Assembly: GCA_964598205.1 (NCBI GenBank)
Contig: CAZRBB010000004.1
Span: forward strand, 71,156-135,155
Origin: an uncultured Candidatus Saccharibacteria bacterium
GTDB taxonomy: Bacteria; Patescibacteriota; Minisyncoccia; CAIUEV01; JAHKAQ01
Reading direction: 5' to 3'
DNA: 64,000 bases
Under the pieces are notes generated by a model, which was not told the DNA's origin, did no database searches, and saw nothing but the letters and a program-made list of their open reading frames with translations. The number at the start of each line of letters is the position of its first letter. Position 1 is the stretch's first letter. This document shows positions 6,369-23,303 of this stretch, one piece after another. Both the position numbers and the translations under genes were made by a program.

Positions 6369-7448
6369 ATGAAAACCAAAAGAAATAAATTTTTATTTTT
6401 TGTATTCGCTCTTTTTTTTGTATTTTTTTTGACTGGAAAAAACTGTTTAGCACTGGTTGTTTCCCCAACAACAGTTGAGCTTACAGCCAATCCTGGACAG
6501 ATGATTGATTTTAATATTGAGATTCATAACGATAATTCAAAAGAAAGAGAGGAATTTATTACATCGATTCTGAATTTTAATGCCAAAGACAATGAAAATG
6601 GAGAACCAAAATTTTTTTCTGGGGATGATTTTCTAGGAGAAGATTTGGCTTCTGAGTGGTTGGAAATAGAGAGTGTTCCCTTGGTGGTAGAGCCAAGCGC
6701 TTGGCGGAAAATTCCTATAACAATCAAGATTCCCCAAAAGGTACAGCCCGGCGGTTATTATGTGGCAGTGTTTTTTGGACCAAAGAAAAATGAAGAAAAA
6801 AGCAAAGATAAAATTTCTAGCGTTTCTTATTACGCCGGATCGTTAGTATTGATCAATGTTTCTGGAGAGACGATTCAAGGAGGGGCGGTTAAGGAATTTT
6901 CTACAGAAGGCGGAAAAAAGTTTTTTCGTAACTTGCCAATAGGGTTTTTTACTCGAATAGAAAATTCTGGCAATCTTCATTTTCGTCCTGCCGGTAATGT
7001 GGAAATTAAAAATTTTTGGAACAAAAAAGTTGCCCAAATCCCAGTGATTAAATCTCAAACCGGGGGGAATATTCTGCCGGAAAGTATTCGTCGCTATAAT
7101 CTTAATTGGGAGAGCGCTTGTGGAGAGAAAGCAAACAAAAATTTTTTTAGTAGCGGATTTTTGGAGCGGGCAAACAGACAACGCCAAGAGTTTTATTTGG
7201 GTCGTTATGCCGCTGTTTTAACAGTAGTCCTACCCAACAAAGAAACGGGAACAGTGTCTATCTTTTTTTGGTTGATTCCAGCCGAGCTACTAACTGTGAT
7301 TTTGGTAGTGCTTATAATTTTGTGGGCACTAATTTATTGTTACAATCGCTGGATTGTTGGTTTTTTAAGGAGTCGCGTTAGGAAGGAACCAAAGAGAACT
7401 CCTATTAAAAGAAAAGAGAAAAAGCAAGATTATTTTTTGAGAAAATAG
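6369..7448 (+). CDS. Cell-surface protein with signal peptide and C-terminal TM anchor (DUF916/DUF3324-like architecture)
   Basis: 359 aa. N-terminal signal peptide, beta-rich ectodomain (VVSPTTVELTANPGQ...), a single C-terminal TM followed by a basic tail. Confidence 0.4.
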   Translation: MKTKRNKFLFFVFALFFVFFLTGKNCLALVVSPTTVELTANPGQMIDFNIEIHNDNSKEREEFITSILNFNAKDNENGEPKFFSGDDFLGEDLASEWLEIESVPLVVEPSAWRKIPITIKIPQKVQPGGYYVAVFFGPKKNEEKSKDKISSVSYYAGSLVLINVSGETIQGGAVKEFSTEGGKKFFRNLPIGFFTRIENSGNLHFRPAGNVEIKNFWNKKVAQIPVIKSQTGGNILPESIRRYNLNWESACGEKANKNFFSSGFLERANRQRQEFYLGRYAAVLTVVLPNKETGTVSIFFWLIPAELLTVILVVLIILWALIYCYNRWIVGFLRSRVRKEPKRTPIKRKEKKQDYFLRK

Positions 7449-7607: not shown

Positions 7608-10600
7608 GTGACAGTAAGAAAACAAAAAAAAGGTGGGATTAATGGTTTCCAACCCTTGGGGGTTTGGGGGCTTTTTATTGTTTTGGGAATCAGCTTGGTG
7701 ATGGTTTTTGGAGGGAATTCGGTTTGGGGAGCGGCGGAGGGGACGGAGGGGACGGAGATAACGGAGGGGACGGTCTGGGGTCGTTTTTGGAGTGGTGTTG
7801 ACCAAGGGGTAACGAGTTTTAAAGAAGGATTTTTAGCAACAACGAATAATCTAAAAAGCTATTTGGGAACAAGTGGACAGTTTATAGCTCGTTTTGGCAA
7901 GGAAAAAAACGAGAAAGAAGCCGAAGAATTGGCCAGCGTTATAGCTAGTCAAAAGATGGAAAAATGGTTGGAATGGTTTAGCAAGAACGGAGAAAGATTG
8001 GAGGAAATTGCTAACGGGGAAAATTTTAACAACCTGTATCTTTCTGGAGCAATAGATGGTCAGAATATTGCCAATAGAAGCTTGAATGGAAATCTTAAAA
8101 TAATTCCTGGATCCATTACCGGATTAGTAATTGCCAACGGTTCTGTTAGTAAAGAAGATATTCTTTGGCGGGGAATTACTTCTGTTAACTTACATGCCAA
8201 TGCGGTAACTACGAGAATTATTAAGGACGGAACTATTATCGGTGCCGATCTTTCAGATGATCTTAGTTTTTCTACTACGGGGACCATCCACGCTGACAAT
8301 ATTAATGGGAATCATTTAATAGTGAAAGATGGTTCAACGCTTTCTGGAGATACGGTTTTTAATGGGGGGGCTTTTTCCCATATGGGAACAACTTTTCTAG
8401 TCAACGAGACTGGAGATGCCACTTTTGATTCTGATGCGGTCACCACTTTTTCTGGGTCAAGATTGGAATTGGTAGCGGACGGTGGCGGGGTAACGATTAC
8501 TTATCCCGATGGTCAAACTTTTCAATTAAAAGATAGAACTACTCGAATTGAAACTTTAGCCAACGGTTCTTTGATTTTAGGAAATGATTCTGACGCTACT
8601 ACCGTGGACGGTTCGGTGATTAATCTTTCTGGGAATACCGTTATTAACGGGACCATTACTGGGAATATTACCGATAACGCTAGTAATGCTTTTGATTTAC
8701 AAGAAGGAACGAATAAGTATCTCAACATTTCTACTGTGGACGGTTCGGAAAAAATTGATTTTGGTAACACAACCCTTAATCCGAGCTATGAATTTTTAGG
8801 AACGGGAGCAACCACTTTGGGCGGTAATTTAACAGTGAATGGAGCGTTAATAGTTGGAGGAGGTACCGCGGTGGCTGGCCATTTTTTACCAGGCTCAAAC
8901 AATGTTTACAATCTGGGTAGTAATACTTACCGCTGGGCTAATCTGTATTTGGGTGGGGAAACATTACATTTAGGAGCTTCGATTACCGACGAAGCGGTTG
9001 TTAGTTATGACACAACTATCAATATTTTAAACATTGGTACTGATGCAACCACCAACGGCGACATTGCTTTTTTTAGTGATGATCTATACCTAGATAAGTC
9101 TAGCGGCAACGTTGGCATTGGGACAACGGACCCGGGGGCGAAGTTGGATGTTGCTGGTGTGGCAACTTTCCGGGGAAACTTGCTTTTTTCCACCGACAAT
9201 ACACTAGACATTGGAGCTAATGGCGCAACACGACCAAGAACAGGGTACTTTGGGACATCGGTAGTCGCACCTAATTTTACCGGCCTGGCTTCCAGCGCTA
9301 CTATTCTTGCCACTGCTCGCGATCTTTATGGCTTTAGTTTTAATGGTTCTGTTGGTACTGTATCGGGAATAAATATTATAGCTAGCAGTTATGGCGGAAC
9401 AGGCAATGGTTTTACGAAATTTACTGGACCGACCACAGCAGAAAAAACTTTTACATTGCCCGATGCCAATGCCATTATTGCCAGAACTGATGCTGGACAA
9501 ACTTTTACTGGAGTCAATATTTTTACTTCCCCAACCTTCACCACTAGCATTGTTCCGACCATAAACGATGGAACAACCATTGGAACAACCACTTTGCAAT
9601 TTTCCGATTTATTCCTCGCTTCGGGAGCAACTATTAACTATGCTAACGGTGATACAACTCTCACTCACTCAACCGGAATTTTGACATTGGGAACAGGAAC
9701 ACTGAAAATCACCACCCCTACCAACACCGCCACCAGCGTGGCGACGATTGACGGAATGCAGACTCTGACGAACAAGACATTGACTGCATCTAACAATACT
9801 TTAGGTGGAGTGACTATGACATTGGGAACTGATGCTACTGGTGATATATATTATCGCAATGTTTCTGGATATTTGACTAGATTAGGAATTGGAACTTCTA
9901 ATCAGATTCTCCATGGTGGAACTACTCCAAGTTATTCTGCTATTTCTCTGACTGGAGATATTACTGGAATTTTACCACTAGCCAATGGTGGCACCAATAA
10001 AAATATAACGGCTTCATCTGGAGCAATCATATTCTCTGATACTGATTCAATGGAACTTACTCTAGTTGGGTCTTCTGGGCAAATTTTGGTTTCTCAAGGA
10101 GCAGGTACGCCTATCTGGTCAACTCCCACCTATCCTTCTGCTTCCGGATCTGCCGGGAAAATTATTCGTTCCAATGGCGCTAACAATATCTATTCAACAG
10201 CCGCTTTTGCCGATACCTACACCGCCTCAAATCTTCTATATTCAAACGGCGACAACACCGTGCAGGGATTGGCTACGGCCAATAACGGCGTTCTCATTAC
10301 CGGTGTCACCGGTGTTCCTTCTATTTCTTCTACTATTCCAGTGGTTACACAACAAAATATTACCAATGTAAATTCAGCCTTGGTTACAGGACTTCTTCAA
10401 ATTACCACCACGACTGGCGCGCTCACGAGTGTTACCACTTCGGCTGGAATAGACGCTCTCATTTCCAACAATACCGGTTCGGGGCTTTTGGTTTTCAACG
10501 ACGGTCCGACTTTTATTGCCCCGACTCTCGGTGTGGCTACCGCCACTTCAATTAACGGACTTACGATCAATACCACCACCGGCACGCTAGCAATTTCCAA

Positions 10601-13600
10601 TTTAAAAACGCTCACCGCTTCCGATTCCACAACTCTTGCCACCAATGCGATTACTCTCGCTGGTGGGGAAGTCATAACTTTTTCACCAACTAACGCTTTG
10701 TCACTTTTGACGACTGGAGCAACAAGTGTGACTTTGCCAACATCTGGAACATTGATCAGTACCGACCAAACAGTGGGGCAAACTATTGGATTAACTGGAT
10801 CAAGATTAACAAAACTTTGGGCAACCAACATTGAATCAACCAATGCTCCGACAGTTTTAGGTTCAGCAGTTTATTATACTGGTGGTACGGATGTTTCTTT
10901 GGCTGATGGTGGTACCAACGCTTCCCTTACTGCCAATAATGGAGGAATTTTTTATTCCACGGGAACAGCTGGAGCAATTTTAGCAGGAACATCGACAGCC
11001 AATCAAATTTTGCTTTCTGGTTCATTAACAACACCAGTGTGGTCCACCGCCACCTATCCGGTTACGACGATGGCTAATCAATTATTATATTCTTCAGCGC
11101 TTAACACGGTTACTGGTCTAACTACTGCCAACAGTGGTGTTTTGGTTACCAACGCCACTGGAAATCCTTCTTTCTTGGGCTCTCTGACTAATGGACAATT
11201 AGTCGTTGGTTCTACTGGAGCCATTCCAGTTTTAGCCACTTTGACCGGTACAGATAATCAAATCGTGGTGACCAATGGCGCTGGCACAATTACTCTTTCC
11301 ACCTCTCAAAGTATTAATACCACTTCCACTCCGCAATTCGCTAGAATAGGCTTGGGGGTTTCCGCTGACACTACGAACATTCTCACTGCTACATCTGTTT
11401 CTACTACCGATCTTTCAAAGACGCTAAATATCTCTCATACTGGAGCCATCACTGGCACGGGATACGCCGGATACTTTTCCAAAACTGGAGCATCAACTAC
11501 TAATGTTGGGCTTTATACGATTGCCACTGGGGCAACTAATAACTATGCGTTGCAAATAGATTCTGCCGTAGCTGGAGCGAATAATTATACAATCTATGCT
11601 AATGGCACGGCACAAAGTTATTTTGCGGGCAACGTCGGCATCGGGACGACAGCCCCTTCTTCATTATTAAGTGTTGGCGGTGCAGGTTCCAGTTCTTATA
11701 GTATTTCTGGGATAGGTTCTCAAAGTGGAATTTATGGCTCTGCAAGTGCTGGTTATACTGGAGTGTATGGTCTTTCTACATCTGGTGCTGGTATCTCTGG
11801 CTCTTCCACGAGTGGAGTGGGTGGTTATTTTACTTCTTCTGTTGGTTACGCACTTATTACAGGAAACGGCAACGTCGGCATCGGGACGACGGCACCAGAA
11901 TCAAAACTGCATGTTTCAGCAGATGGTGCTGTTCAAATTTTCATGGGCGATCTTTATAGTGATCTATCATATAATACGCCAGAATTCTCAGGCAGGAGAG
12001 CCAGAGGAACTCAATCATTGCCATCCGCAGTATTGGCGGGTGATACGCTAATGCTTGTTGGGGCTAGAGGATATATGGATACTGGGGGGTTTAGCGCAAA
12101 TAAAGCCGTCATACACATGTATGCTGCGGAAAATTTCACTTCTACTACAAACGGAACTTATATCACTTTTTCAACAACACCTATCGGATCAACATCAAGA
12201 GCCGTAAGGATGACAATAGGGGATGCTGGCAACGTCGGCATCGGGACGACGAGTCCGGGGGCGAAGTTAAATATAAAAAGTAATAATGATGCTTCTGCTT
12301 TAAAACTTACATCATCTCTTGGTGGTACTATGATGGATCTTTACGAACTATCAGATGGAAGAATTCAATTCAATCTTTATGATGGGAGCGGAATTACCAA
12401 GGTACGATTAGATGGAAATGCAGATAATTACATAACCGGTGGCAACGTGGGAATCGGGACGACGGGACCTTCGGCCCTCTTGCATGTTGGATCCGGCGGT
12501 ACTCCCGGCTACGCAACTACGGGTGACGCTTATTTCCAAAATGATGTTGAAATTGACGGAACACTTTATACCGCAGGATTATCGGTACTTGGCAGCATTA
12601 TTCCTGCAACGGACGACACTTACGATCTTGGTTCATCGTCTTACCGCTGGAGAGATCTTTATCTTGGTCCAACATCATTACACCTAGTTTCAACGGTTGG
12701 GGAAACAACAACGGCCAGAGATTGGAAGTTGTCTATTCAGGAAACAGACGGCACAAGCGAAGGCAATTTGCGTATTATGGAAGGCGCAACGGAAATAATG
12801 AACATACAACCCGGCGGCAACGTCGGCATCGGGACGACGGGACCGGGGGCAAAACTGAATGTAGTAGGTGGTTCCGCTGGGACAAATACAGGTATTTTTA
12901 GAATCGAAAACAATACTAATGCTTCTGCTAACACAGGTGCATCAGTTGAGTTTTACAGTTACGATAACACGCCAGCTCAGGTAGAAATGGGACGAATTGG
13001 CACATTGGTAACAACTGGAACTGCCGGAGCGGCTTCATCTGATTTAGCTTTCTCGGCACGCAATAGTGGAACATTGACGGAATGGATGAGAATAAAAGGT
13101 AGCGGCAACGTCGGCATCGGGACGACGGGACCAGCGACAAAATTACAAATAGCTGGTACGGGTTCGACAAATGGACTTTCTTTTGGTGATGCGGCAGATG
13201 TGATTTTATATCGAAATTCAAGTACGCAACTTAGAATGAATAGTGATTTGCGGACAAGTGGTTCTAGCGGCTTGACTGTGGATGGGCCTGCTTTTTCTCT
13301 TGGTGGATTTAACACGCTTTATAACGCCGCAAGTGGTTTGCAATTTAAAGCGAATGCTACTTCGCAGATGCAACTATTTGCATCAGGTGGTTTAGCACTT
13401 GGTAGTACTTATTGGTCAACTGACCCAGGGGCAGGGAATTTAACAATACAAGGCAACGTCGGCATCGGGACGACGGCACCGGGGGCAGCCTTGGATGTGA
13501 TTGGAACAGGGATATTTCAATATGCGGCCTTGGAAAATGAAGGTGAATTTCTAAGAATATCGAGAACCTCTCAGACAACTCGATATAGTTCTTTATGGGC

Positions 13601-16600
13601 GAGACAGTCAGTTACAAAAGCGAATAATTATATTGGATTTAGAGTGTATGATGGTAATTCGACAGATTATGCTCCTGTAGAAATGATGAGAATAACAGGA
13701 AGTGGCAACGTCGGCATCGGGACGACGAATCCGACTGCGAAATTGGAAATAGGGGGAGATAATAATGGACTAAAAATATCTGGAGCAACATATGTTAGTG
13801 CTGAATTATTAGATGGTGGTAGCAATGATTCAGGGTACTTATCTCTTTATCGTGCTGGAGTTAAGGCTTTTTCTATTGGTGCTAATGACACATATTTCAA
13901 TTACGGCAACGTCGGCATCGGGACGACGGGACCGGCACAGAAACTGCATGTGTTCGGTGCGACGCCTCAAGTGGAAATTGACTCGTCATCTGGCACTAAC
14001 CCTTCATTGTTCTTAACAACGACAAATGACACGACTCAAGGAATAAAGTTTAGTTATGACCAAGGGGCTGGGGACGGGTATATTGATAATGTTTGGAACA
14101 ATGCTGCTGGAGATTTATTTTTTAGACTACGCACTCTCGGAACTCCAGTGGATGTCTTGTCGTTAAAAGCGAGCGGCAACGTCGGCATCGGGACGACGGC
14201 ACCGGTAAGCAAATTTCATCTATATGATAGCACGGGCTCCGGGTTAAGTATTGATACGGGAAATGGTTATGCGAATTTGTATTTCTTGGACGGTGGAGTT
14301 GAAAGATGGAGGTTTAGAAACGATGGTGCGACCGATGACTTTCACTTAATGGAAGATGCATCGGACATACGTCTTACTGTTCAAGAAGGCGGCAACGTCG
14401 GCATCGGGACGACGAGTCCACTGTCAAGTTTCTATGTAGGTAGTACTACTCCAACTAGTCTTTCCTACGCCCTTGGTAATTGGAACTCATACAAGGCAGC
14501 CATTGTAGATACATTCAATTATGCATCGGTTGATGATGAACATACTTCGTTTTTATCAGACCTGACCGTGAATTCGACCGTAAATAGTAGTGAACAGATG
14601 GCAGCGATTGCAGCATCAATAACAGTTAGTACGGCAAGTACGGCAGATACTGGGTCACTTAGGACTATATGGTCAAATTTGCAACATGATGGTACTGGAA
14701 CAGTTGCTGCCGCTCGGTTGTTTAATGGTGAGTTGGCAAATAAATCCACTGGCACAATGACTAAGGCGGATGGACTTGGTGTAGCTTTTAGAAATACAGG
14801 AGGGGGAATAATCAGTGATTTGAGAGGTGTTAACATTATTGACCTAGTAAACACTAGTGGGACAATCACTAATACATATGGGATATATACTGGCGACTTG
14901 TCATTAGGTACTCAAACGAATATGCCATTTTCTTTTTATGCCTCTGACTCTGATACATACAATTATTTTGCGGGCAACGTCGGCATCGGGACGACGGCAC
15001 CGGTAAGCAAATTTCATCTATATGATAGCACGGGCTCCGGGTTAAGTATTGATACGGGAAATGGTTATGCGAATTTGTATTTCTTGGACGGTGGAGTTGA
15101 AAGATGGAGGTTTAGAAACGATGGTGCGACCGATGACTTTCACTTAATGGAAGATGCATCGGACATACGTCTTACTGTTCAAGAAGGCGGCAACGTCGGC
15201 ATCGGGACGACTGGGCCATTGGTAAAGTTGCATATAACTACTGATGATGTTAATGGTAATGGCATACGAATTCAAAATGATAATGCTCTTGGCACTTGGA
15301 AATATGGAACGCTCGCTATGATGGGGCAAACTGGAAACAGCATTGTTGATTGGCCAAATGCTTTAGTAATTGAAGGTGCTGGCAATGGGGGAACTGTTAT
15401 TAGTAGTGCAGCAGGGGATATTAAATTTAATCCTGGTAGAATACAAGGAATGATAGTAAAGCAAACAACAGGCAACGTCGGCATTGGGACGACCGCGCCG
15501 GGATTTAGATTAGATGTTCCAGCGGTTTCTGCTAGCAACTATGATGTTGCAAAAATAGGCGGATTTGTAATTGCAAGAGCAGGGACTGATGTTAGTAATT
15601 TACTTATAACTGGTGCAAGTTGGGCTGGTGGAAGTACATTAACAGCTACCGCAACTACTTATGCCAGTTATCAACAAACTAGCGGAAATCATTATTTTTA
15701 TACTGCTACGGGACAAACCGTGGGAAATGCAGTTACTACTGTTATTCCAATGACAATAGTGGGTAATGGAGCAGTGGCCAATACTTTGTATCTAACTGCG
15801 GGCAACGTCGGCATCGGGACGACGAGTCCGACTCAAGCATTACAAATTACAGGAAGTCAATTTCAACAGCTGTCTTTACAAACAACTGGTGCTTATACAA
15901 CAAAAACTTACTTTGCGAATTATGCTGCAATAGGGAACTTGAACTCGTATTGGTCTATGAATAGAAATATTGGGACTGGTGTATTTGATAATATTGAACT
16001 GCCAGCGGCGGCAATCGCAATGAATGGCTCTACGGGAAATTCATCTATTCAATTTTATACTGCAGCCGCAAATAACACCGCACCATCTGTGCGTATGACA
16101 ATCGACAATAGTGGCAACGTCGGCATCGGGACGACGAGTCCGGGTGATAAGTTGAGTGTAGATGGCACAACTTATGGCACAACTATATCTGTCACAGGTA
16201 GAAGTGCATCATGGCCTGGCAATGCGACGGATTTGTCAAAACTTAATTTTAATGGATTAGTAGGTGCTTCTGGTGGAACACTGGCTTCTATAGCAACGAG
16301 GTTTGGGAATTCTGGTTCTGATTTTAGTAGCCAACTTCTTTTTTCAACAACTGACGCTTCCTTTGTTTTACAGGAAAGGATGAGAATCAATAACCTCGGC
16401 AACGTCGGCATCGGGACGACAGCACCGGGGGCATTATTGCACGTCGGACCAAACTCAGTTGTGTACCAACCAACCGTTGGAACTAAACAGCTAATTCTCT
16501 CTGGTGCTGGAAATACAAACGCAATTGATAATGGGACAATGATGATTTTTAGTGGTGGGTATAATTCAACGCTTGCACAAAATGCGACTTATGGTGCAAT

Positions 16601-18164
16601 TGCTGGTTTAAAAGAAAATGGGACCGACAATATTGCGTCTGGTTATTTAGGGTTTTACACCGGTCGTACTGGAGATGCCAATGCCTTGGAAAAAATGAGA
16701 ATTACAAGCACTGGCAACGTCGGCATCGGGACGACGGGACCGGTAGAGGCTTTGGATGTTTTGGGAAAAATAAAAGCAAGCAGTTCGGTTCAAGCAAATG
16801 GCGTAGCAATAGGTGGATTAAACGGCCTTTATTATAGTTCTTCCACAAGGGGTAAATATGGTTTTGGTTCTGTGACAGCGCTAGGAGCTTATCCACTCGA
16901 TTTATCTTCTGGTGATGTTACGACGTATACTGATGGATATATCAAATTCAGTACCGCCGGAACAGAAGCGATGCGAATTCAATCAAGTGGCAACGTCGGC
17001 ATCGGGACGACGGGACCAGGTGGTAGACTTCATATCGCAGATGGAATTACGGGCAATGACGCGACATATCGGGGAAAGTTAATTATTGAGAGCGGGCAAA
17101 CAGATAATGCCAGTAATGGATTGGAATTTAAAGCCAGCGCAGGGGCGAGCGGGTATGGTTATCGTTTGGCAACCGTTTATCCTACTTCTGGCATTGACCT
17201 TCGTTTTCAATCCAGACAAAATTCAGCTACTTGGTCTGATGTAATGACAATAAATACAGTCGGCAACGTCGGCATCGGGACGACGAATCCGGGGTATAAG
17301 TTGCAAGTTAGACCGGCTACTGATGTCAATCTTGGTTTTGGAAGTAATGCTGTTGGTGGTTTGCTAAATGTGGCTAATGATGCCGCATCAGTTGTTGATT
17401 TGACAACTAATGCGTGGGAATATCACTTTCAATCAAATGGAAACGAAAGGGTTACAATTCTCAACGGCGGCAACGTCGGCATCGGGACGACGGGGCCGGG
17501 GGCACGGTTAAATGTAGTTGATGTAAATTATGGATTTAATAATGTTGGAAATCTATTTATTCGCACTTCTGACGCACAGGCGGCAGACATTGGTGGAATG
17601 ATTGGACTGGGAGGTATTGGAAATGACGCAGGAACGGGAATTACTTCCTTTGCGACAATAGCAGGAAGAAAAGAAAATGGAACAACTTCAAATTACAGTG
17701 GATATTTGCAATTCTCAACATCTAATCCAGGAAGTACAAAGAATGAATGGATGCGAATCACAAGCACCGGCAACGTCGGCATCGGGACGACGGCACCCTC
17801 CCAAAAACTTCATGTTGAAGGTCACTGTCTTACCGGCGACACCCTAATCGCTGTTCGTCGTAAAAAAAGACGAAATTCTGAAAACGGAGAAAATGAAATT
17901 GACCCAGATGACCTAGACTTTTCTTTATCCGATTTTGCGTCTTCTAGCGATCAAGAAACAGAAGACTGTATCCTAGTACCAATTTGCAACATTCTCCCCG
18001 GAGACGAGGTTTTATCGCTCAATGAGGAGACAAATCGCACCGAGTATCACCCCATAAATGGCCTCCTAGACATGGGCATTCAAGAAATTTATCAAATTCG
18101 CACTAAGTCTGGACGGGTAATTCGGACTACCGGAAATCATCCGTATCTGGTAAAAATGAACTGA
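7608..18164 (+). CDS. Giant (3518 aa) tail-fibre-like repeat surface protein = N-extein fused to the N-terminal half of an intein
   Basis: N-terminal signal/TM anchor. Tail-fibre-type motifs (ILPLANGGTN...). About 23 modules each starting GNVGIGTT(A/S/G/N)P..KL.V. Last 112 aa are Hint N-terminal blocks A (CLTGDTLI) and B (TGNHPYL). Confidence 0.85.
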   Translation: MTVRKQKKGGINGFQPLGVWGLFIVLGISLVMVFGGNSVWGAAEGTEGTEITEGTVWGRFWSGVDQGVTSFKEGFLATTNNLKSYLGTSGQFIARFGKEKNEKEAEELASVIASQKMEKWLEWFSKNGERLEEIANGENFNNLYLSGAIDGQNIANRSLNGNLKIIPGSITGLVIANGSVSKEDILWRGITSVNLHANAVTTRIIKDGTIIGADLSDDLSFSTTGTIHADNINGNHLIVKDGSTLSGDTVFNGGAFSHMGTTFLVNETGDATFDSDAVTTFSGSRLELVADGGGVTITYPDGQTFQLKDRTTRIETLANGSLILGNDSDATTVDGSVINLSGNTVINGTITGNITDNASNAFDLQEGTNKYLNISTVDGSEKIDFGNTTLNPSYEFLGTGATTLGGNLTVNGALIVGGGTAVAGHFLPGSNNVYNLGSNTYRWANLYLGGETLHLGASITDEAVVSYDTTINILNIGTDATTNGDIAFFSDDLYLDKSSGNVGIGTTDPGAKLDVAGVATFRGNLLFSTDNTLDIGANGATRPRTGYFGTSVVAPNFTGLASSATILATARDLYGFSFNGSVGTVSGINIIASSYGGTGNGFTKFTGPTTAEKTFTLPDANAIIARTDAGQTFTGVNIFTSPTFTTSIVPTINDGTTIGTTTLQFSDLFLASGATINYANGDTTLTHSTGILTLGTGTLKITTPTNTATSVATIDGMQTLTNKTLTASNNTLGGVTMTLGTDATGDIYYRNVSGYLTRLGIGTSNQILHGGTTPSYSAISLTGDITGILPLANGGTNKNITASSGAIIFSDTDSMELTLVGSSGQILVSQGAGTPIWSTPTYPSASGSAGKIIRSNGANNIYSTAAFADTYTASNLLYSNGDNTVQGLATANNGVLITGVTGVPSISSTIPVVTQQNITNVNSALVTGLLQITTTTGALTSVTTSAGIDALISNNTGSGLLVFNDGPTFIAPTLGVATATSINGLTINTTTGTLAISNLKTLTASDSTTLATNAITLAGGEVITFSPTNALSLLTTGATSVTLPTSGTLISTDQTVGQTIGLTGSRLTKLWATNIESTNAPTVLGSAVYYTGGTDVSLADGGTNASLTANNGGIFYSTGTAGAILAGTSTANQILLSGSLTTPVWSTATYPVTTMANQLLYSSALNTVTGLTTANSGVLVTNATGNPSFLGSLTNGQLVVGSTGAIPVLATLTGTDNQIVVTNGAGTITLSTSQSINTTSTPQFARIGLGVSADTTNILTATSVSTTDLSKTLNISHTGAITGTGYAGYFSKTGASTTNVGLYTIATGATNNYALQIDSAVAGANNYTIYANGTAQSYFAGNVGIGTTAPSSLLSVGGAGSSSYSISGIGSQSGIYGSASAGYTGVYGLSTSGAGISGSSTSGVGGYFTSSVGYALITGNGNVGIGTTAPESKLHVSADGAVQIFMGDLYSDLSYNTPEFSGRRARGTQSLPSAVLAGDTLMLVGARGYMDTGGFSANKAVIHMYAAENFTSTTNGTYITFSTTPIGSTSRAVRMTIGDAGNVGIGTTSPGAKLNIKSNNDASALKLTSSLGGTMMDLYELSDGRIQFNLYDGSGITKVRLDGNADNYITGGNVGIGTTGPSALLHVGSGGTPGYATTGDAYFQNDVEIDGTLYTAGLSVLGSIIPATDDTYDLGSSSYRWRDLYLGPTSLHLVSTVGETTTARDWKLSIQETDGTSEGNLRIMEGATEIMNIQPGGNVGIGTTGPGAKLNVVGGSAGTNTGIFRIENNTNASANTGASVEFYSYDNTPAQVEMGRIGTLVTTGTAGAASSDLAFSARNSGTLTEWMRIKGSGNVGIGTTGPATKLQIAGTGSTNGLSFGDAADVILYRNSSTQLRMNSDLRTSGSSGLTVDGPAFSLGGFNTLYNAASGLQFKANATSQMQLFASGGLALGSTYWSTDPGAGNLTIQGNVGIGTTAPGAALDVIGTGIFQYAALENEGEFLRISRTSQTTRYSSLWARQSVTKANNYIGFRVYDGNSTDYAPVEMMRITGSGNVGIGTTNPTAKLEIGGDNNGLKISGATYVSAELLDGGSNDSGYLSLYRAGVKAFSIGANDTYFNYGNVGIGTTGPAQKLHVFGATPQVEIDSSSGTNPSLFLTTTNDTTQGIKFSYDQGAGDGYIDNVWNNAAGDLFFRLRTLGTPVDVLSLKASGNVGIGTTAPVSKFHLYDSTGSGLSIDTGNGYANLYFLDGGVERWRFRNDGATDDFHLMEDASDIRLTVQEGGNVGIGTTSPLSSFYVGSTTPTSLSYALGNWNSYKAAIVDTFNYASVDDEHTSFLSDLTVNSTVNSSEQMAAIAASITVSTASTADTGSLRTIWSNLQHDGTGTVAAARLFNGELANKSTGTMTKADGLGVAFRNTGGGIISDLRGVNIIDLVNTSGTITNTYGIYTGDLSLGTQTNMPFSFYASDSDTYNYFAGNVGIGTTAPVSKFHLYDSTGSGLSIDTGNGYANLYFLDGGVERWRFRNDGATDDFHLMEDASDIRLTVQEGGNVGIGTTGPLVKLHITTDDVNGNGIRIQNDNALGTWKYGTLAMMGQTGNSIVDWPNALVIEGAGNGGTVISSAAGDIKFNPGRIQGMIVKQTTGNVGIGTTAPGFRLDVPAVSASNYDVAKIGGFVIARAGTDVSNLLITGASWAGGSTLTATATTYASYQQTSGNHYFYTATGQTVGNAVTTVIPMTIVGNGAVANTLYLTAGNVGIGTTSPTQALQITGSQFQQLSLQTTGAYTTKTYFANYAAIGNLNSYWSMNRNIGTGVFDNIELPAAAIAMNGSTGNSSIQFYTAAANNTAPSVRMTIDNSGNVGIGTTSPGDKLSVDGTTYGTTISVTGRSASWPGNATDLSKLNFNGLVGASGGTLASIATRFGNSGSDFSSQLLFSTTDASFVLQERMRINNLGNVGIGTTAPGALLHVGPNSVVYQPTVGTKQLILSGAGNTNAIDNGTMMIFSGGYNSTLAQNATYGAIAGLKENGTDNIASGYLGFYTGRTGDANALEKMRITSTGNVGIGTTGPVEALDVLGKIKASSSVQANGVAIGGLNGLYYSSSTRGKYGFGSVTALGAYPLDLSSGDVTTYTDGYIKFSTAGTEAMRIQSSGNVGIGTTGPGGRLHIADGITGNDATYRGKLIIESGQTDNASNGLEFKASAGASGYGYRLATVYPTSGIDLRFQSRQNSATWSDVMTINTVGNVGIGTTNPGYKLQVRPATDVNLGFGSNAVGGLLNVANDAASVVDLTTNAWEYHFQSNGNERVTILNGGNVGIGTTGPGARLNVVDVNYGFNNVGNLFIRTSDAQAADIGGMIGLGGIGNDAGTGITSFATIAGRKENGTTSNYSGYLQFSTSNPGSTKNEWMRITSTGNVGIGTTAPSQKLHVEGHCLTGDTLIAVRRKKRRNSENGENEIDPDDLDFSLSDFASSSDQETEDCILVPICNILPGDEVLSLNEETNRTEYHPINGLLDMGIQEIYQIRTKSGRVIRTTGNHPYLVKMN
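17826..18161 (+). other. Split-intein N-terminal fragment (IntN, about 112 aa) at the C-terminus of the giant protein
   Basis: Cys1 in CLTGDTLIAV (block A). TGNHPYLV (block B, conserved T..H). Followed directly by a stop codon. No intein C-terminal blocks in this ORF. Confidence 0.8.
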
Positions 18165-18193
18165 ACTTAAAAATTTTTAACTAAGTTTTCTTT

Positions 18194-19753
18194 ATGTTTG
18201 GCGGTGGATTTTTGAAAAATTTTAGGGGCACTTGTATCACGCTTGCCAAACGAGTAGTCGATTTATTTCAAAGTCGTGATACCGAACCCTTGCCGATTCG
18301 TGATACGAAACCAGTCCTTAAAAAAATACGGAAAACCAAAAATTCCCAAAATTCGGTCAAAATTTTAGCCAAAGAAAAAATTCCCATGGGCGTGGAAATT
18401 TTAGAACCGGAACCTAGGCCCAATCTTTTGGAAATTTTTTGTCCGTATTGCTCTGGCAAAAATTTTGTAAAACGCGGTTTACGGCAAAAGAAAAAAGAAA
18501 AAGTTCAACTTTATCTTTGCCGTGATTGTCGGCGGTCGTTTACTCCCGGAGCGGTGAAAGGTCGGCATTATCCAATGGAGGTGATTCTTAACGCCATTAG
18601 TTTATATAACCTGGGGTACAGTTTGGAAAAGGCGGGAAAGATGGCATCTAAAATAGAGGGATTCAATAGGGAAGGAAAAAAAGAGCAGGGGGCGGGACTC
18701 AAAGGGACAAGGTTCCAGAGGGGACTGCTTACAACATCGGGCAACTTCGGGAGCGGGATGATCGGCAGCGGGACGGTGCTAAGTTGGGTGAACCGCTACC
18801 GTCATCTCTGTGCTTTTTCCCGAATGCGGGAATTTGCCATAAAAATGCTACCGCCGAATGAAATGATTTCTTCGGCTACCCTAGCGCATCGGCAACTCTA
18901 CCGATTCCGGCACCATCGTGCCAAAACAATCTTGATTATTAAAGAAGATTTTAAGAACAGTCCCTTTTGGCCATTAAAAGAATTTTTGGATTTAGTGCCG
19001 GTGGAATGTCCACATCAATATTTTCAAGAAGGTTTGCGGGCGTCAGAAGCGCCGCTTACTTTTTCCAAAACGGAAATGATTGTGCGGGGCAAAAATAATT
19101 TTGCCAACAAAATGGCTAAGTTTGCGCTAGAATCGGCCACTAAAGCCAAAGATCGCCACGATGTTTTACAGCGATTTATGTTGGCCAACGATTCGGTAAC
19201 AGTAGCTACAGAAGTGCCGATTTATCTTCGTCGGGAAGATTTAGCACACATGCAAACACAGTTGGGGTTTGAGCTGTATAAAAAGAGGATTCGTTCTAGA
19301 AAGAAGGAAGACAAGGCCCAAGGGGGGGCGAGGCCCAAGGGGGACTACTTACAACATCGGGCAACTTCGGGAGCGGGAAGATCGGGCAGCGGGACGGCAT
19401 TGGAACTTTTTCCCCTAGAAGAAATACCCAAATTAATTACCGGTCACATTGATTTTGTGCAGATTAGAAACGGAATGATCCATATTTTGGATTACAAGCC
19501 AAAAGCCGCCAAAGAAAGACCGATTGAACAATTAACCATTTACGCGTTGGCGCTTTCCCGCTTAACTGGCTTACGGGTGTATCATTTTAAGTGCGCTTGG
19601 TTCGACGAAAAAGATTATTTTGAATTTTTCCCACTGCATGTGGTTTCCAAGCCGGGAAAGAGGCGTTATCGGCGGAAAATTCGGACGATTGAAGGGACTT
19701 ATAAATTAAACGACGATCCGTTAAAGGTGGCGAATATTAAGGCTCAAGGCTAA
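18194..19753 (+). CDS. Putative free-standing homing-type nuclease: N-terminal C4 zinc ribbon (IS1/IS1595-transposase-like) plus C-terminal PD-(D/E)xK RecB/Cas4-family nuclease motifs
   Basis: CPYCSGKNF...x17...CRDCRRSF zinc ribbon. C-terminal GHIDFV (motif II), ILDYKPK (D/ExK), QLTIYALAL (QxxxY). Lies between the two intein halves. Contains out-of-frame 56-bp direct repeats and a G7 tract, so the ORF may be composite or decaying. Confidence 0.5.
   Translation: MFGGGFLKNFRGTCITLAKRVVDLFQSRDTEPLPIRDTKPVLKKIRKTKNSQNSVKILAKEKIPMGVEILEPEPRPNLLEIFCPYCSGKNFVKRGLRQKKKEKVQLYLCRDCRRSFTPGAVKGRHYPMEVILNAISLYNLGYSLEKAGKMASKIEGFNREGKKEQGAGLKGTRFQRGLLTTSGNFGSGMIGSGTVLSWVNRYRHLCAFSRMREFAIKMLPPNEMISSATLAHRQLYRFRHHRAKTILIIKEDFKNSPFWPLKEFLDLVPVECPHQYFQEGLRASEAPLTFSKTEMIVRGKNNFANKMAKFALESATKAKDRHDVLQRFMLANDSVTVATEVPIYLRREDLAHMQTQLGFELYKKRIRSRKKEDKAQGGARPKGDYLQHRATSGAGRSGSGTALELFPLEEIPKLITGHIDFVQIRNGMIHILDYKPKAAKERPIEQLTIYALALSRLTGLRVYHFKCAWFDEKDYFEFFPLHVVSKPGKRRYRRKIRTIEGTYKLNDDPLKVANIKAQG
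18721..18776. repeat. 56-bp direct repeat, copy 1 (inside the nuclease ORF)
   Basis: gggactgcttacaacatcgggcaacttcgggagcgggatgatcggcagcgggacgg. Near-identical copy at 19341-19397. The two copies are read in different frames, so the repeat is at DNA level. Confidence 0.8.
19341..19397. repeat. 56-bp direct repeat, copy 2 (one extra G), preceded by a G7 homopolymer at 19322-19328
   Basis: gggactacttacaacatcgggcaacttcgggagcgggaagatcgggcagcgggacgg. Confidence 0.8.
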
Positions 19754-19931
19754 ATTCAACCAACGCTTTTTTGATCTCCTCTTTTTTGGTAAAAAGATTA
19801 AAATCCAAAGATTGCCGGTGCCCAATGTGAAGAGCAATGGCGGTACCGCCAGCCAAACCAAAATCTCGGGAAAAATCACTAATTAATGGCAAGATTTTTA
19901 CTTGTTCGGAAGTTAAAATCTCAGTGTGCAT
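19737..19931 (-). pseudogene. N-terminal remnant of an AbiEii-family (DUF1814) nucleotidyltransferase toxin gene, truncated
   Basis: 64-aa ORF with LAGGTAIALHIGHRQSLDFNLF, resembling the AbiEii N-terminal GGTAL...R.S.DiDf motif. A stop follows and no downstream continuation exists in any frame of 60 aa or more. Overlaps the 3' end of the nuclease ORF. Confidence 0.35.
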
Positions 19932-20317
19932 GTTTGTTAAAATAAAGAGTGAAATAATTTTTTATTTCTGGTCGGTAATTGGTTCTTTTTTTTGATTTTT
20001 TGGTTTGGTTTTTAAAGATAGTCGCTATTTTTTGGAGGCCAACCACGGTCAAAAGTTTTTAAAAATCCTGCCAATCGCCGTAATTCAAAACGGTTTCTGT
20101 GATTGATTCAACAGACAAAACGGAAGGGTCTTTAACTGACCAAAAAAGCATTTTTCTTTGGACAGCAAATTGTTTCAGCTCTTTATCCATGATAGAATAA
20201 TAGCATATTTGGTTGGAAAAATCATTGGTTTGTGATTAAAGTTTTGTTTTTAATATCTTCTTAAATTATTTTGGTAATATTAAGTTAAGATTTTTGGTGA
20301 GGAGATGATAAAAATCA

Positions 20318-20767
20318 ATGTATCGCAATTATGTAAAAAGAGCGGTTAAGAATTTTACCGATTTAGATGTTTACCAAAAGCTTTTGGAAGGAAGTGTTTT
20401 TGTGGCAAAAGTGGTGGTGCCGGCTTTTTGGGAAAAACAAACGGAGACAAAAAAAGACAAAACGGCGGAGCTGATTATAGAAAAGCTAACAGTGCATACT
20501 CTTTATCTTCCAGAGCTGATTGCCAAGGCTCATTCTGTTCGTTTTGGAGCGGGGGAGCAATGTTTGGCATTTTTAGAAGAAGCAATGCTTGGCTGTAATT
20601 TAGCGGTGGTCTATTTGGAACAAACGCGGGATATTTGCGAAACTGGGTTAGAAACCGAACAATTTTCCGAACAGATTAAAAAATATTTTCAGGTAAGACA
20701 AAAAGTGTTAAACTTGCAAAGAGTTTGGAAGAAATTTATAGAAATCAAAAAACAAGAACAAAACTAA
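20318..20767 (+). CDS. Four-helix-bundle protein (TIGR02436 / 23S-rRNA-IVS-protein-like; Avd-like fold)
   Basis: 149 aa, all-helical. N-terminal FTDLDVYQK...resembles the F.DL.VWQKA signature of this family. Stop lies 4 nt before the IntC gene start. Confidence 0.4.
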   Translation: MYRNYVKRAVKNFTDLDVYQKLLEGSVFVAKVVVPAFWEKQTETKKDKTAELIIEKLTVHTLYLPELIAKAHSVRFGAGEQCLAFLEEAMLGCNLAVVYLEQTRDICETGLETEQFSEQIKKYFQVRQKVLNLQRVWKKFIEIKKQEQN

Positions 20768-20771
20768 AATT

Positions 20772-21059
20772 ATGTTTGGTTTTTTAAAGAAAGTTGCTAA
20801 AAAATGGCTCAAGGTTTCCCAGTTAAAAGTGGGAGCAAAAATTGCTGTGCCCAGAGCAGCGGCAATGGCTGGTTATGGTGGACTGGTTGCTAATGATTCC
20901 TTACTAGAAGAAGGCGAAGGGGATTATATGTGGGACGAAATTACCGAAATTAAAAAAGTTGGTCGAGAAAGAGTTTACGACATTGAAGTAGACGGAACGC
21001 ATAATTTTATTGCGGGGAATATTAATAATAAATTATTCGGCGGAATTTTTGCTCACAAC
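20772..21059 (+). other. IntC (C-terminal intein half; 96 aa from the first ATG, 44 aa if translation starts at 20928)
   Basis: Terminal His-Asn (AHN) followed by +1 Thr. Block F VYDIEVDGTHNFIA. Confidence 0.75.
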
Positions 21060-22670
21060 ACCTATGTCACCGGCAACGTCGGCATCGGGACGACGACACC
21101 GACCTACCGTCTTCAACTCCCCAATGTAGGCGATGCTACCGGGCAGGGCCAAGCCAATGCTTGGGTAGCATATTCAGATAGAAGTTTAAAAGAAGAGGTT
21201 GATCCAATCACTAATGCTCTAAACAATGTTCTTCTCTTACAAGGAGTAGACTTTACTTGGAAGGGTCAAGGAATTAGAAGCTCTGGCTTTATTGCTCAAG
21301 ATGTAGAAGAGGTTATTCCTAGTCTAGTATCCACAGACATTAACGGAATTAAGTCTTTAGACTATGGAAGATTTACTCCTTACCTAGTAGAAGCAATCAA
21401 AACCCAACAACTAAACATTACTACTAACACGAGCCGTCTTGATCTCCTAGATCAAAAGATAATGGAAGAGGCGAGTGGTTCTTTAATCCTTAATGCTACT
21501 GGCAATAGTATCCAAGCCAAAGATCTCTTAGACGCTACCTTACAAGGTGTAGCTACTAAAGTTAAATCCGGCACTATTTCCGACACTGACTTTATTTTAC
21601 CGATCAATGGTTTAATGGCAGTAGACTCAGCTAATGGAAGGGTCTATTTCCGTTACGACAATGATTGGCATTATGTTAATCAAACAGGAGGCTTTCAGAT
21701 TCCTAATTACGAAACCGCTCCGTACGAAAAGCTATCTCAAAACTCTAAGATTAAAGAAAATGAAGCTCTTCCTTTTGAATCAAGTAACTATCCTCACTAC
21801 ATAACAGAAAAGTTAACTCCCGGAGAGCTTCTGATTCCTTTTGTAGATGAATACCTTCCAGACGGAGCTGTCCATGGTCTGTATGCTAGATTCGAAGATG
21901 TTAAAGAAAAAATGTTTACTCAAGAAAAGAGCCAGTTAGTAGATCTAGCCCTTAAAACCGCAGAGAACATAGAAACTATTAAAGAGTTTAAAGAATCAGT
22001 AGATAAAAACCTAGCCGTAATTTCTTCTAACTTTGAATCATTAGATAACAACATTGACCGAAACGAAAAGAATGTTGAAAGCTTAGAAACCAGAACAGAA
22101 GCTACAGAAGCTAAAAATAATGATCTATCTTCCCGAGTTTCTGTCTTAGAGTTTTCTCTTTCTGAATCCCAACTAGCCGGAGAGCGCTTAGAGTTCCTTA
22201 CCCAAATCTTAAACCCAGCTGAAGACGGAAGCCTGACTATTTACAATGATCTGAATTTAGAAGGCAGATTGAGCGCCGAGGAAGTGGTGCTTAACAAGAT
22301 CACTATTAAGACCGATTCCGAAGAAACCCGCACGGTAGGGCAGGCGGTGATTGTTGGATTAGCTAAAGATGAAGATGCTGATGGCAAAGACGACAACACC
22401 GGAGCCGATGGTAAGAGCGTGATTATAAAAACCAGAATGGTTACGGAAAGTTCCAAGATTTTTTTAACCTTTGAAAACAATCCTCAATCATTGTATTGGG
22501 CAGAAAAAGTAACCAATGAATCTGGTGCTCTTATTGGTTTTAAGATTCTTCTAAACAGTCCGGCGTCGGCGGATATTAAAGTTTCTTGGTGGATTCTAGA
22601 AGAAGACGATCCGGCCAAGCAAACAACAAGCACTCCGGTCATTCCTTCTTCCCAATCAGAAGCACTTTAA
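20772..22670 (+). CDS. Split-intein C-terminal fragment (IntC) fused to C-extein: final GNVGIGTT repeat, peptidase-S74 intramolecular chaperone domain, coiled coil and C-terminal beta domain
   Basis: Blocks F/G: ERVYDIEVDGTHNFIAGN ... GIFAHN | T. The C-extein starts TYVTGNVGIGTTTP using the same 23-mer as the giant gene. SDRSLKEEV...GFIAQDVEEVIPSLV...LDYGRFTPYLVEAIKTQQ matches the S74 (CIMCD) consensus. Internal starts at M32 and M53 (20928) would give an IntC of 44 aa. Confidence 0.8.
   Translation: MFGFLKKVAKKWLKVSQLKVGAKIAVPRAAAMAGYGGLVANDSLLEEGEGDYMWDEITEIKKVGRERVYDIEVDGTHNFIAGNINNKLFGGIFAHNTYVTGNVGIGTTTPTYRLQLPNVGDATGQGQANAWVAYSDRSLKEEVDPITNALNNVLLLQGVDFTWKGQGIRSSGFIAQDVEEVIPSLVSTDINGIKSLDYGRFTPYLVEAIKTQQLNITTNTSRLDLLDQKIMEEASGSLILNATGNSIQAKDLLDATLQGVATKVKSGTISDTDFILPINGLMAVDSANGRVYFRYDNDWHYVNQTGGFQIPNYETAPYEKLSQNSKIKENEALPFESSNYPHYITEKLTPGELLIPFVDEYLPDGAVHGLYARFEDVKEKMFTQEKSQLVDLALKTAENIETIKEFKESVDKNLAVISSNFESLDNNIDRNEKNVESLETRTEATEAKNNDLSSRVSVLEFSLSESQLAGERLEFLTQILNPAEDGSLTIYNDLNLEGRLSAEEVVLNKITIKTDSEETRTVGQAVIVGLAKDEDADGKDDNTGADGKSVIIKTRMVTESSKIFLTFENNPQSLYWAEKVTNESGALIGFKILLNSPASADIKVSWWILEEDDPAKQTTSTPVIPSSQSEAL
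21174..21420 (+). other. Peptidase S74 / C-terminal intramolecular chaperone autoproteolytic domain
   Basis: YSDRSLKEEVDPITNALNNVLLLQGVDFTWK...SGFIAQDVEEVIPSLVSTDINGIKSLDYGRFTPYLVEAIKTQQLN. The Ser-Lys dyad motif SD(R/K)xLK is conserved. Confidence 0.8.
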
Positions 22671-22835
22671 TTAATTCCGAATTTTGAAATTACGAATAAA
22701 GATTTTTCTTCTTGGTCTTCCTTAAAACCAATGCAATACTTCTTTTTTGATTCTTGTCTGTAAATTGTCAATTAAATATTTGTGTGTTTAGATAATTAAG
22801 AATCGATTAATTTTAAATTAAATAAATCTAAAATC

Positions 22836-23303
22836 ATGGAAAGAACTTTGGTCATTATTAAACCAGATGCGCTTCAAAGAAATTTGATTGGGGAAATAAT
22901 TTCTCGTTTTGAAAGAAAGGGATTAAAAATTATTGGCATGAAGATGATGTCGGTAGATAATGTTAAGCTAGATGAACATTATGGCAAGTATTCTGACAAG
23001 CCATTCTTTGTTCATCTTAAAAAATTTATGCAGAGTTCGCCAGTAGTGGCAATGGTTTGGGAAGGTGTGGAGGCCGTTTCAGCGGTGCGCTTAATTGCTG
23101 GATCCACCAAAGGAAGAGAGGCAGATGCTGGCACAATCCGAGGCGATCTTTCTATGAGTCTACAAACCAATGTGATTCATGTTTCCGATCCCAAAGAAGA
23201 TCCAGAAGCGGAAATTAAGAGATTTTTTGGGGACGACGAACTTTTTGATTATGAAAAGATAGACATGTTTTATCTTTATTCTCCAGACGAATTAGAAAGC
23301 TAA
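22836..23303 (+). CDS. ndk: Nucleoside diphosphate kinase
   Basis: ERTLVIIKPDALQRNLIGEIISRFERKGLKIIGMK; NDK fold signature. Confidence 0.9.
   Translation: MERTLVIIKPDALQRNLIGEIISRFERKGLKIIGMKMMSVDNVKLDEHYGKYSDKPFFVHLKKFMQSSPVVAMVWEGVEAVSAVRLIAGSTKGREADAGTIRGDLSMSLQTNVIHVSDPKEDPEAEIKRFFGDDELFDYEKIDMFYLYSPDELES

Follow-up and report, generated by a model that had tools for sequence, protein, structure and literature searches.

A Peptidase_S74 chaperone domain encoded apart from a giant fibre across a putative split-intein cassette in an uncultured Candidatus Saccharibacteria bacterium

By definition, an intramolecular chaperone of the S74 type is part of the very chain that it folds. How could such a domain serve a fibre when the two are encoded on different polypeptides? 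The question is raised by a locus in a 64,000-nucleotide (nt) stretch of DNA from an uncultured Candidatus Saccharibacteria bacterium (GenBank assembly GCA_964598205.1, contig CAZRBB010000004.1, positions 71,156 to 135,155 of the forward strand), referred to below as the window. There, an open reading frame (ORF) of 3518 amino acids (aa) (7608..18164, + strand) encodes the body of a giant fibre followed by the N-terminal half of an intein, and a second ORF, of 632 aa (20772..22670, + strand) and 2.6 kb away, begins with a C-terminal intein half and continues into a Peptidase_S74 domain. The reading that we consider probable is that a gene for a giant trimeric surface fibre was fractured by a mobile split-intein cassette, and that its two products undergo trans-splicing, export, S74-mediated trimerisation and self-cleavage.

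The S74 domain and the chain that carries it

An initial annotation of the locus had placed an S74 chaperone downstream of the split site, on a polypeptide other than that of the fibre. The identity of the domain was confirmed by a profile search, in which PF13884 (Peptidase_S74) matched aa 135-186 (nt 21174..21329; residue numbers for the domain refer to the 632-aa ORF). The match spans profile positions 1-57 of 58 and scores 51.4 bits (gathering score, 22; E=1.3e-13). The same stretch was matched by PHROG tail-fibre profiles (E down to 2e-24), and in each matching phage profile the S74 match was placed at the very end. The region includes the peptides SDRSLKEEV (aa 135-143), GFIAQDVEEVIPSLV (aa 172-186) and YGRFTPYLVEAIKTQQ (aa 198-213); the Ser135 codon (21174..21176) starts at nt 21174, and nt 21420 lies one base beyond codon 216. 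Ser135 and Lys140 (codon 21189..21191) are spaced as an i, i+5 dyad (S-D-x-x-x-K), which alignment bears out: among 109 homologues aligned with phmmer, the Ser135 column holds Ser in 107 of 107 ungapped rows and the Lys140 column holds Lys in 108 of 109. In MYRF, mutagenesis has shown that a Ser/Lys dyad, S587/K592, is required for cleavage, and the sequence GVIAQ forms a trimerisation region (PMC3742440); GFIAQ at aa 172-176 (21285..21299) is its counterpart here.

The AlphaFold2 model of the C-extein has a pLDDT of 80-89 throughout the S74 domain, which on the evidence of Pfam, dyad conservation, AlphaFold2 and Foldseek extends, with a long C-terminal helix reaching to about aa 234, over 21174..21473 (+). 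The likeness to endosialidase-type chaperones that had been noted at the outset is seen in a Foldseek match to the endoNF CIMCD, 3gw6 (probability 0.9, E 0.5); the best match among solved structures was a better one, the ICA domain of MyRF, 7dc3 (E=6e-5, probability 1.0, 116 aligned columns, TM-score 0.62 normalised by target length).

On its own chain the domain is preceded by the intein C half (aa 1-96) and only 38 extein residues (21060..21173, +), namely the +1 residue Thr97, the 24th copy of the fibre repeat GNVGIGTT (21072..21095) and a linker to the cleavage serine, Ser135. It therefore lies on the C-extein past the split site, as annotated, and has almost nothing upstream to fold on its own polypeptide. 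At the gene level chaperone and fibre are indeed on different chains; they do not share a chain in the primary translation product and would share one in the product predicted from splicing. Homologues free of the intein (P0002, and the giant ORF of L012/L013) have fibre, S74 and tail on a single uninterrupted chain, which is the ancestral cis state.

Downstream of the domain the ORF runs on for 446 aa after the Pfam match, or 416 aa after aa 216. The long (about 450 aa) coiled-coil and beta-rich part described in the initial annotation is thus present at about the length given, but the chaperone does not extend into it. On the AlphaFold2 model and comparison with relatives, this tail (21474..22667, +) consists of a globular region with the conserved motif DSANGRVYFRY...GFQIPNYETAP..., a long predicted helix or coiled coil (ORF aa ~402-480) and a C-terminal beta-sandwich (aa ~522-611, pLDDT 84-91 over ~522-610) that ends VSWWILEE; in its relatives the sandwich ends WWI[VL]E. 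A full HMMER search with aa 217-632 returned 482 cluster representatives, 33 of them at E<=1e-30, and in all the matches listed the tail stands at the extreme C-terminus of large proteins, of up to 5166 aa. Of the 58 matches that have 250 or more residues ahead of the tail, 4 have S74 just upstream of it. Searched as a profile against PDB sequences, the tail matched coiled coils only. The ~415-aa tail is therefore a general C-terminal module of giant Patescibacterial proteins, usually without S74, and S74 is an occasional insertion between fibre and tail. The tail is accordingly unusual for phage S74 proteins, as had been suggested, but widespread among the giant proteins of Patescibacteria, and for this reason the S74 domain here counts as an internal, MYRF-like cleavage module and not as a terminal cap.

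The fibre, the intein halves and the genes between them

The N-extein, a fibre body of 3406 aa (7608..17825, +) delimited from the ORF list, its repeats and its hydropathy, carries a hydrophobic signal or anchor at its N-terminus (aa 17-35; Kyte-Doolittle 19-residue maximum 2.38), and the C ORF is without a hydrophobic segment (maximum 0.99). It contains 23 GNVGIGTT repeats, the first of which lies 841 aa ahead of the second; from repeat 2 on the spacing is 67-125 aa. A Pfam scan of the fibre ORF found no domain besides the intein and no enzyme domain. The GNVGIGTT-type motif is shared with a solved Bdellovibrio fibre, Bd2133 (PDB 8ond), in a weak match (E=0.066). A segment of 239 nt within the fibre gene, encoding GNVGIGTTAPVSKFHLYDSTGSGLSIDTGNGYANLYFLDGGVERWRFRNDGATDDFHLMEDASDIRLTVQEGGNVGIGTT, is duplicated with at most one mismatch (14175..14413 and 14973..15211), which points to a recent internal duplication or to an assembly collapse in the repeat array.

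The intein N half (112 aa; 17826..18161, +) begins at Cys3407 of the fibre ORF (nt 17826) and reads CLTGDTLI...TGNHPYLVKMN, with Cys1 in CLTGDTLI, an acidic insert and block B (TGNH); it was recognised by TIGR01445 (29.6 bits against a cutoff of 24.5), by PF14890 and by alignment. The C half (96 aa; 20772..21059, +) has a basic N-terminus, block F (VYDIEVDGTHNF) and block G (IFAHN), and ends ...IFAHN96 directly before T97; TIGR01443 scored 25 bits on aa 1-96 against a cutoff of 15.6, and the half aligns to residues 82-152 of the Ssp DnaB mini-intein. On the PF14890 intein model the N half covers positions 9-72 and close homologues of the C half cover 76/77-155, so that the two halves complement each other and no part is lacking or present twice. 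All four splicing blocks (A, B, F and G) occur, with Cys1, T-x-N-H, the terminal H-N and Thr as the +1 nucleophile. Cys1 and T-x-N-H of the N half are kept in an alignment of the window with L004 and L011, and the catalytic motifs of the C half (block F and HN followed by T) are invariant across five loci, the window and four others; every aligned C-half ORF starts with Met, 8-12 residues ahead of a conserved W-L-K-V.

Natural split inteins are known to have halves of opposite charge (PMC2677866). In the window the net charge is -8 for the N half (-12 for its acidic insert) and +8 for the first 30 aa of the C half. The first 30 residues of split-class C halves average +3.76, and the corresponding part of contiguous inteins averages +0.32 (Mann-Whitney p=1.5e-4 with n=25 in each class, a statistic that treats loci as independent and leaves shared ancestry uncorrected), and this higher basic charge may be an adaptation to working in trans.

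Two other routes to a continuous product were rejected. The N-half ORF ends in TGA (18162..18164, +), and read-through under an alternative genetic code would add just two codons before TAA. Rejoining at the RNA level by a known self-splicing intron or other RNA is ruled out by an Rfam scan of 17700..21200, which gave no match at E<=1. A promoter and terminator scan of 17800..22900 found fewer sites than in shuffled sequence, an uninformative outcome.

Between the halves, an AT-rich spacer of 29 nt (18165..18193, +) leads from the N-half stop codon to a nuclease gene, a length inside the 27-51 nt range of spacers in fractured genes (PMC2677866). The nuclease (519 aa; 18194..19753, +) combines an IS1-type zinc ribbon with a PD-(D/E)XK domain, scoring 23.1 bits with PF12705 against 22 and 27.8 bits with NF050000, just below the cutoff of 28. 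On its sequence it is presumed to be the homing endonuclease of the cassette. It has more than 3243 homologues at E<=1e-3; the top 120 all fall below E=1e-144, and the named ones are all Patescibacteria. In L004 (1-1737) and L011 (1-2539) the nuclease is fused in frame to the intein N half; in the window it is a separate ORF. Next, on the minus strand, comes a remnant ORF of 64 aa that is similar to the N-terminal part of an AbiEii nucleotidyltransferase toxin (19737..19931; PF08843, 19.9 bits, below the cutoff of 22.5); the 564 nt of the cassette in which it lies are missing from L004.

The last gene before the C half encodes a protein of 149 aa (20318..20767, +), with its stop codon 4 nt ahead of the ATG of the C-half ORF. 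Its AlphaFold2 model (pLDDT 91.6) has four helices forming a bundle; homologues 46-59% identical adjoin the intein C half on its upstream side in L004, L007, L008 and L011, and the four-helix protein is paired with the nuclease in nine of nine loci examined by hand. The fold resembles the S23/IVS-protein family (2rld) and DGR Avd at E-values that are not significant, and searches of Pfam, NCBIfam and PHROGs gave no family match. Assignment to PF05635, tried with neighbouring PF05635 proteins, was rejected by hhalign (probability 0.9%). In L012 (9551-10093) the nuclease/four-helix pair stands free: it comes shortly after a fibre gene that is uninterrupted, and its neighbours include 23S_rRNA_IVP and Bro-N genes.

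Related loci and genomic setting

Alignment of C halves against one genome per species (GTDB) yielded 256 relatives of the C half, and locus classes and flank counts were drawn from the best 80 of them. A contiguous intein within a very long ORF was found at 44 of these loci and a split intein with a nuclease or four-helix homologue upstream at 26; a further 9 are cut by contig ends, and 1 is split with no cassette seen, which makes 10 unresolved loci in all. Inspection by hand showed the split layout in L004-6 (P0017), L007 (P0040), L008/9 (P0077) and L011 (P0154): the motif GNVGIGTT.P.Q.LHV.G. directly precedes the Cys of the N half, after which come the nuclease, the four-helix protein and the Met-starting C half. 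The contig of L010 (P0029) starts inside the intein C half, so that only the C half and an S74 C-extein are visible. The intervening proteins at these loci are 46-66% identical to those of the window, with open reading frames, and the complete C-extein ORFs of the split loci, 160-1288 aa long, are kept open. Three further contigs, L001-L003, come from the same population and show no more than one base of difference from the window.

What these C-exteins carry was counted in the 16 split loci with a complete C-extein ORF. S74 is present in 5 of the 16, or in 6 if matches at E<1e-3 are counted; it lies 60-880 aa from the +1 residue and is followed by tails of 163-405 aa. A match to the domain of P0077 was likewise found in 5 of the 16; a Pfam scan of the trimmed P0077 segment identified it as Peptidase_G2 IMC (PF11962, 29.1 bits against 25), and a PDB sequence search with the P0077 C-extein returned chance-level matches only. 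C-exteins of this type are seen in P0077 (aa ~110-270; L008), P0040 (L007) and L011:3031-5730. The encoding of a chaperone apart from its fibre is thus recurrent, and it involves two unrelated autoproteolytic chaperone types.

In nearly all 80 loci the intein is followed by the +1 context TY[IL]xGN[VL]GIGTT, from which the intein family can be called specific to the GNVGIGTT repeat motif. The presence of the intein in the fibre gene is explained by its target, the GNVGIGTT repeat conserved in such genes, and the closeness of the intein to S74 is a consequence of this targeting and not of functional coupling. A specific targeting of the junction between fibre and chaperone was considered and rejected: the distance from the +1 residue to S74 ranges from 38 to 880 aa, and the shared feature is GNVGIGTT. 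The N-side flank GNVGIGTT.P.Q.LHV.G. is conserved between loci whose C-exteins differ, which suggests that flanking extein sequence travels with the intein. In the window the copies of GNVGIGTT at 17769..17792 and 21072..21095 flank the intein and would lie 23 aa apart once spliced, against 67-125 aa elsewhere.

Contiguous members of the family (L058, L057, L037, L041, L047, L051) carry inserts of 108-220 aa exactly at the split position, the one value of 881 aa coming from a locus in which two inteins share an ORF; L057 has such a pair. One insert is a NYN domain (PF01936, 69 bits), and several share the motif E-[IV]-DQS.R.EEL. The split point is therefore the nuclease-insertion site of this intein family, in agreement with the model of gene breaking put forward by Dassa et al. 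(PMC2677866). A scan of IMG/VR found a single close relative of the C half, on a 5-kb contig, and otherwise only matches to generic inteins, which argues against a viral origin of the family.

The contig itself is cellular: downstream of the locus lie ndk, rpsL, rpsG, fusA, tuf and the S10 operon. Patescibacteria account for nearly all named homologues and for most reference-genome records. Upstream genes occupy 6369..7448 and 1579..4992 (-); the one just upstream of the fibre has a weak match to a WxL-interacting peptidoglycan-binding domain (17.8 bits, below cutoff), and an AcrB-type RND transporter (614 bits) lies further upstream.

A proposed course of events, its rivals and its meaning

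If the halves are rejoined as proteins, the locus would give rise to two primary products, one consisting of a signal peptide, the 3406-aa fibre and the intein N half, and the other of the intein C half, 38 aa, the S74 domain and the ~400-aa tail. In the cytoplasm the acidic N half would pair with the basic C half, and trans-splicing through Cys1, Asn96 and Thr+1 would produce a chain of 3942 aa with the junction ...KLHVEGH-TYVTGNVGIGTT... (predicted junction peptide, LHVEGHTYVTGNVGIGTTTPTYR). The joined chain, whose C part has no signal of its own, would then be exported by way of the N-terminal signal. Outside the cell, S74 would trimerise through the GFIAQ region and its C-terminal helix and nucleate folding of the fibre, after which Ser135/Lys140 would cut before Ser135 to leave the fibre, at ~353 kDa, and a fragment of 55 kDa that comprises S74 and the tail. 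That productive folding needs trans-splicing or trans-association had been presumed in the initial annotation, and it gains support from the homologues, the catalytic residues, the location of the signal and the charge of the halves; we infer it from these, as we do the splicing, export and cleavage and the order in which they would occur.

Several points weigh against this course of events. The nuclease of the window is separated from the N half by a TGA stop, a possible sign of decay, and the 564-nt stretch with the AbiEii remnant could be another. The C half, at 96 aa, contrasts with the 33-54 aa of most known fractured genes, and the charge comparison between split and contiguous members is uncorrected for shared ancestry. 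Splicing a Sec-exported protein of 3500 aa before its export poses a problem of timing for which we know of no precedent. Moreover, an unspliced C protein, with its S74 domain and coiled coil, could trimerise and self-cleave early, which would detach the intein half from the chaperone. Cleavage of MyRF requires trimerisation of the ICA domain only, and activation of phage S74 domains has been reported to depend on a folded upstream region (PMC8326128); which of the two regimes holds decides whether the order of events needs control.

A rival reading is that the gene is simply broken, a mobile nuclease cassette having disrupted an intein-bearing fibre gene whose halves are never rejoined and whose S74-tail ORF is a remnant or has a separate role. 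Such a history would accommodate a nuclease cut off from the N half by TGA and 29 nt when its relatives in L004 and L011 are fused, the additional 564 nt with the AbiEii fragment, a promoter and terminator signal no higher than the shuffled background over 17800..22900, and a nuclease/four-helix pair that also stands free of any intein in L012. We nevertheless judge it unlikely, as 26 of the 80 loci retain the split layout with long intact C-extein ORFs, invariant catalytic residues and a conserved start Met, the intervening ORFs are still open at 46-66% identity between loci, and a decaying remnant would not retain a 632-aa ORF together with its dyad. The conserved residues bear also on the idea that the chaperone acts in trans without ligation, the intein halves serving as a non-covalent docking pair after the manner of the separately encoded tail-fibre chaperones that phages use (for example, going by abstracts, in PMC10579305 and PMC9608196). 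The strong charge complementarity of the halves would suit docking, and the chaperone would in any case be discarded after S74 cleavage; yet Cys1, T-x-N-H, the terminal HN and the +1 Thr, strictly conserved in the aligned loci, are not needed for docking, a C ORF without a signal peptide would leave a non-covalent partner stranded in the cytoplasm during Sec export, and contiguous relatives of the same intein must splice to give a continuous fibre. Docking alone is thus very unlikely in our view.

A different matter is what S74 does once it is joined to the fibre. Compatible with trans-splicing, and a possibility that we entertain tentatively, though we rather doubt it, is that S74 is mainly a MYRF-like release switch, whose cleavage sheds or activates the tail or unmasks the fibre tip, the long fibre folding independently of it. 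The best structural match is the MyRF ICA domain, which is cleaved on trimerisation alone (PMC8326128), the domain is internal as in MYRF, with ~400 aa after it, and 54 of the 58 giant relatives carry the tail directly on the fibre without S74, so that those fibres fold without it. On the other hand, the domain is closest in sequence to S74 domains found at the ends of phage and bacterial fibres, and GNVGIGTT stands directly ahead of the domain, as in terminal S74 fibres. It is also conceivable, but in our estimation improbable, that the split is itself a used feature and more than the trace left by a selfish element, either because a fibre tagged with the N half is ligated to alternative C-half tips, or because ligation is a licensing step by which the folding and cleavage domain may be attached only after the whole 3400-aa body has been made. 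The notion of alternative tips comes from the same intein halves flanking C-exteins with S74 and tail, S74 alone, or Peptidase_G2; under either version, an episymbiont would be assembling a host-attachment adhesin from modules after translation.

The proposed trans-spliced fibre can be set beside several known systems. Fractured genes (PMC2677866) likewise have, on one strand, an N-extein with its N half, a short spacer, an endonuclease gene and a C half with its C-extein, and they share all the splicing residues and the oppositely charged halves. Their known hosts, however, are conserved enzymes of DNA synthesis and repair, mainly of phages, whereas the host here is a giant cellular fibre of a Patescibacterium, poorly conserved and bearing a signal peptide. 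Their endonucleases are of the GIY-YIG or Vsr-like kind; the nuclease of the present cassette combines a zinc ribbon with a PF12705 PD-(D/E)XK domain and is in some loci fused to the N half. The cassette of the window also differs in having a second conserved gene, for the four-helix bundle, and a remnant ORF, a C half of 96 aa as opposed to 33-54, and Thr as the +1 residue. With the S74 domains (CIMCD) of endosialidase K1F and the T5 L-shaped tail fibre, the domain has in common its profile, the i/i+5 dyad, G-x-IAQ, its fold and its position just after a fibre repeat; unlike them it is not extreme C-terminal, being followed by ~400 aa, and it is encoded on a separate polypeptide by a cellular gene.

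The MAT (mosaic adhesive trimeric) proteins of Bdellovibrio, to which Bd2133 belongs, are surface-displayed trimeric adhesins with a signal peptide and repeated capping loops; their C-termini have either another tip domain or S74 with SDxxxK, for which self-cleavage at the serine has been shown experimentally (Caulton et al. 2024, PMC10769870). The fibre of the window is probably of this general kind, a phage-fibre-like bacterial surface fibre with a putative signal peptide and a loop motif of the G-N-V-G-I-G type weakly matching that of Bd2133 (8ond), and its relatives also alternate between S74 and other tip domains at their C-termini; it is, however, 3-4 times as long, its S74 domain is followed by a tail, and an intein interrupts it. 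MYRF (PMC3742440, PMC8326128) resembles it in the internal S74-type domain, long C-terminal region, S/K dyad and trimerising helix, and differs in being eukaryotic, membrane-anchored through its C-terminal part and equipped with a DNA-binding domain upstream, with no fibre repeats and no intein.

The components are therefore not new in kind: S74 domains, split inteins with an intervening endonuclease gene and phage-like bacterial fibres have all been described. What is new is the way in which they are combined and the type of host, a giant structural protein that a cellular Patescibacterium apparently exports; new, too, are the cassette of two genes, a C half of 96 aa and the repeated occurrence of an intramolecular chaperone encoded apart from the protein that it acts on. 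A full-text search found, in the library that it covered, no literature joining 'split intein' with 'candidate phyla radiation', and publications on inteins and Patescibacteria, judged by titles and abstracts, describe no such arrangement.

The gene described here, and its counterparts in several related genomes, place an intramolecular chaperone on a second chain, so that its function would depend on the trans-splicing of a very large, apparently exported structural protein. The fibres are plausibly host-attachment organelles of episymbiotic bacteria, structures of which, to our knowledge, little is known. If splicing takes place, the order of splicing, export, trimerisation and self-cleavage becomes directly testable, a new split-intein family would be recognised by its +1 Thr, long C half and strong charge pairing, and the range of natural split inteins would extend from the DNA-metabolism enzymes of phages to the cell-surface fibres of Patescibacteria.

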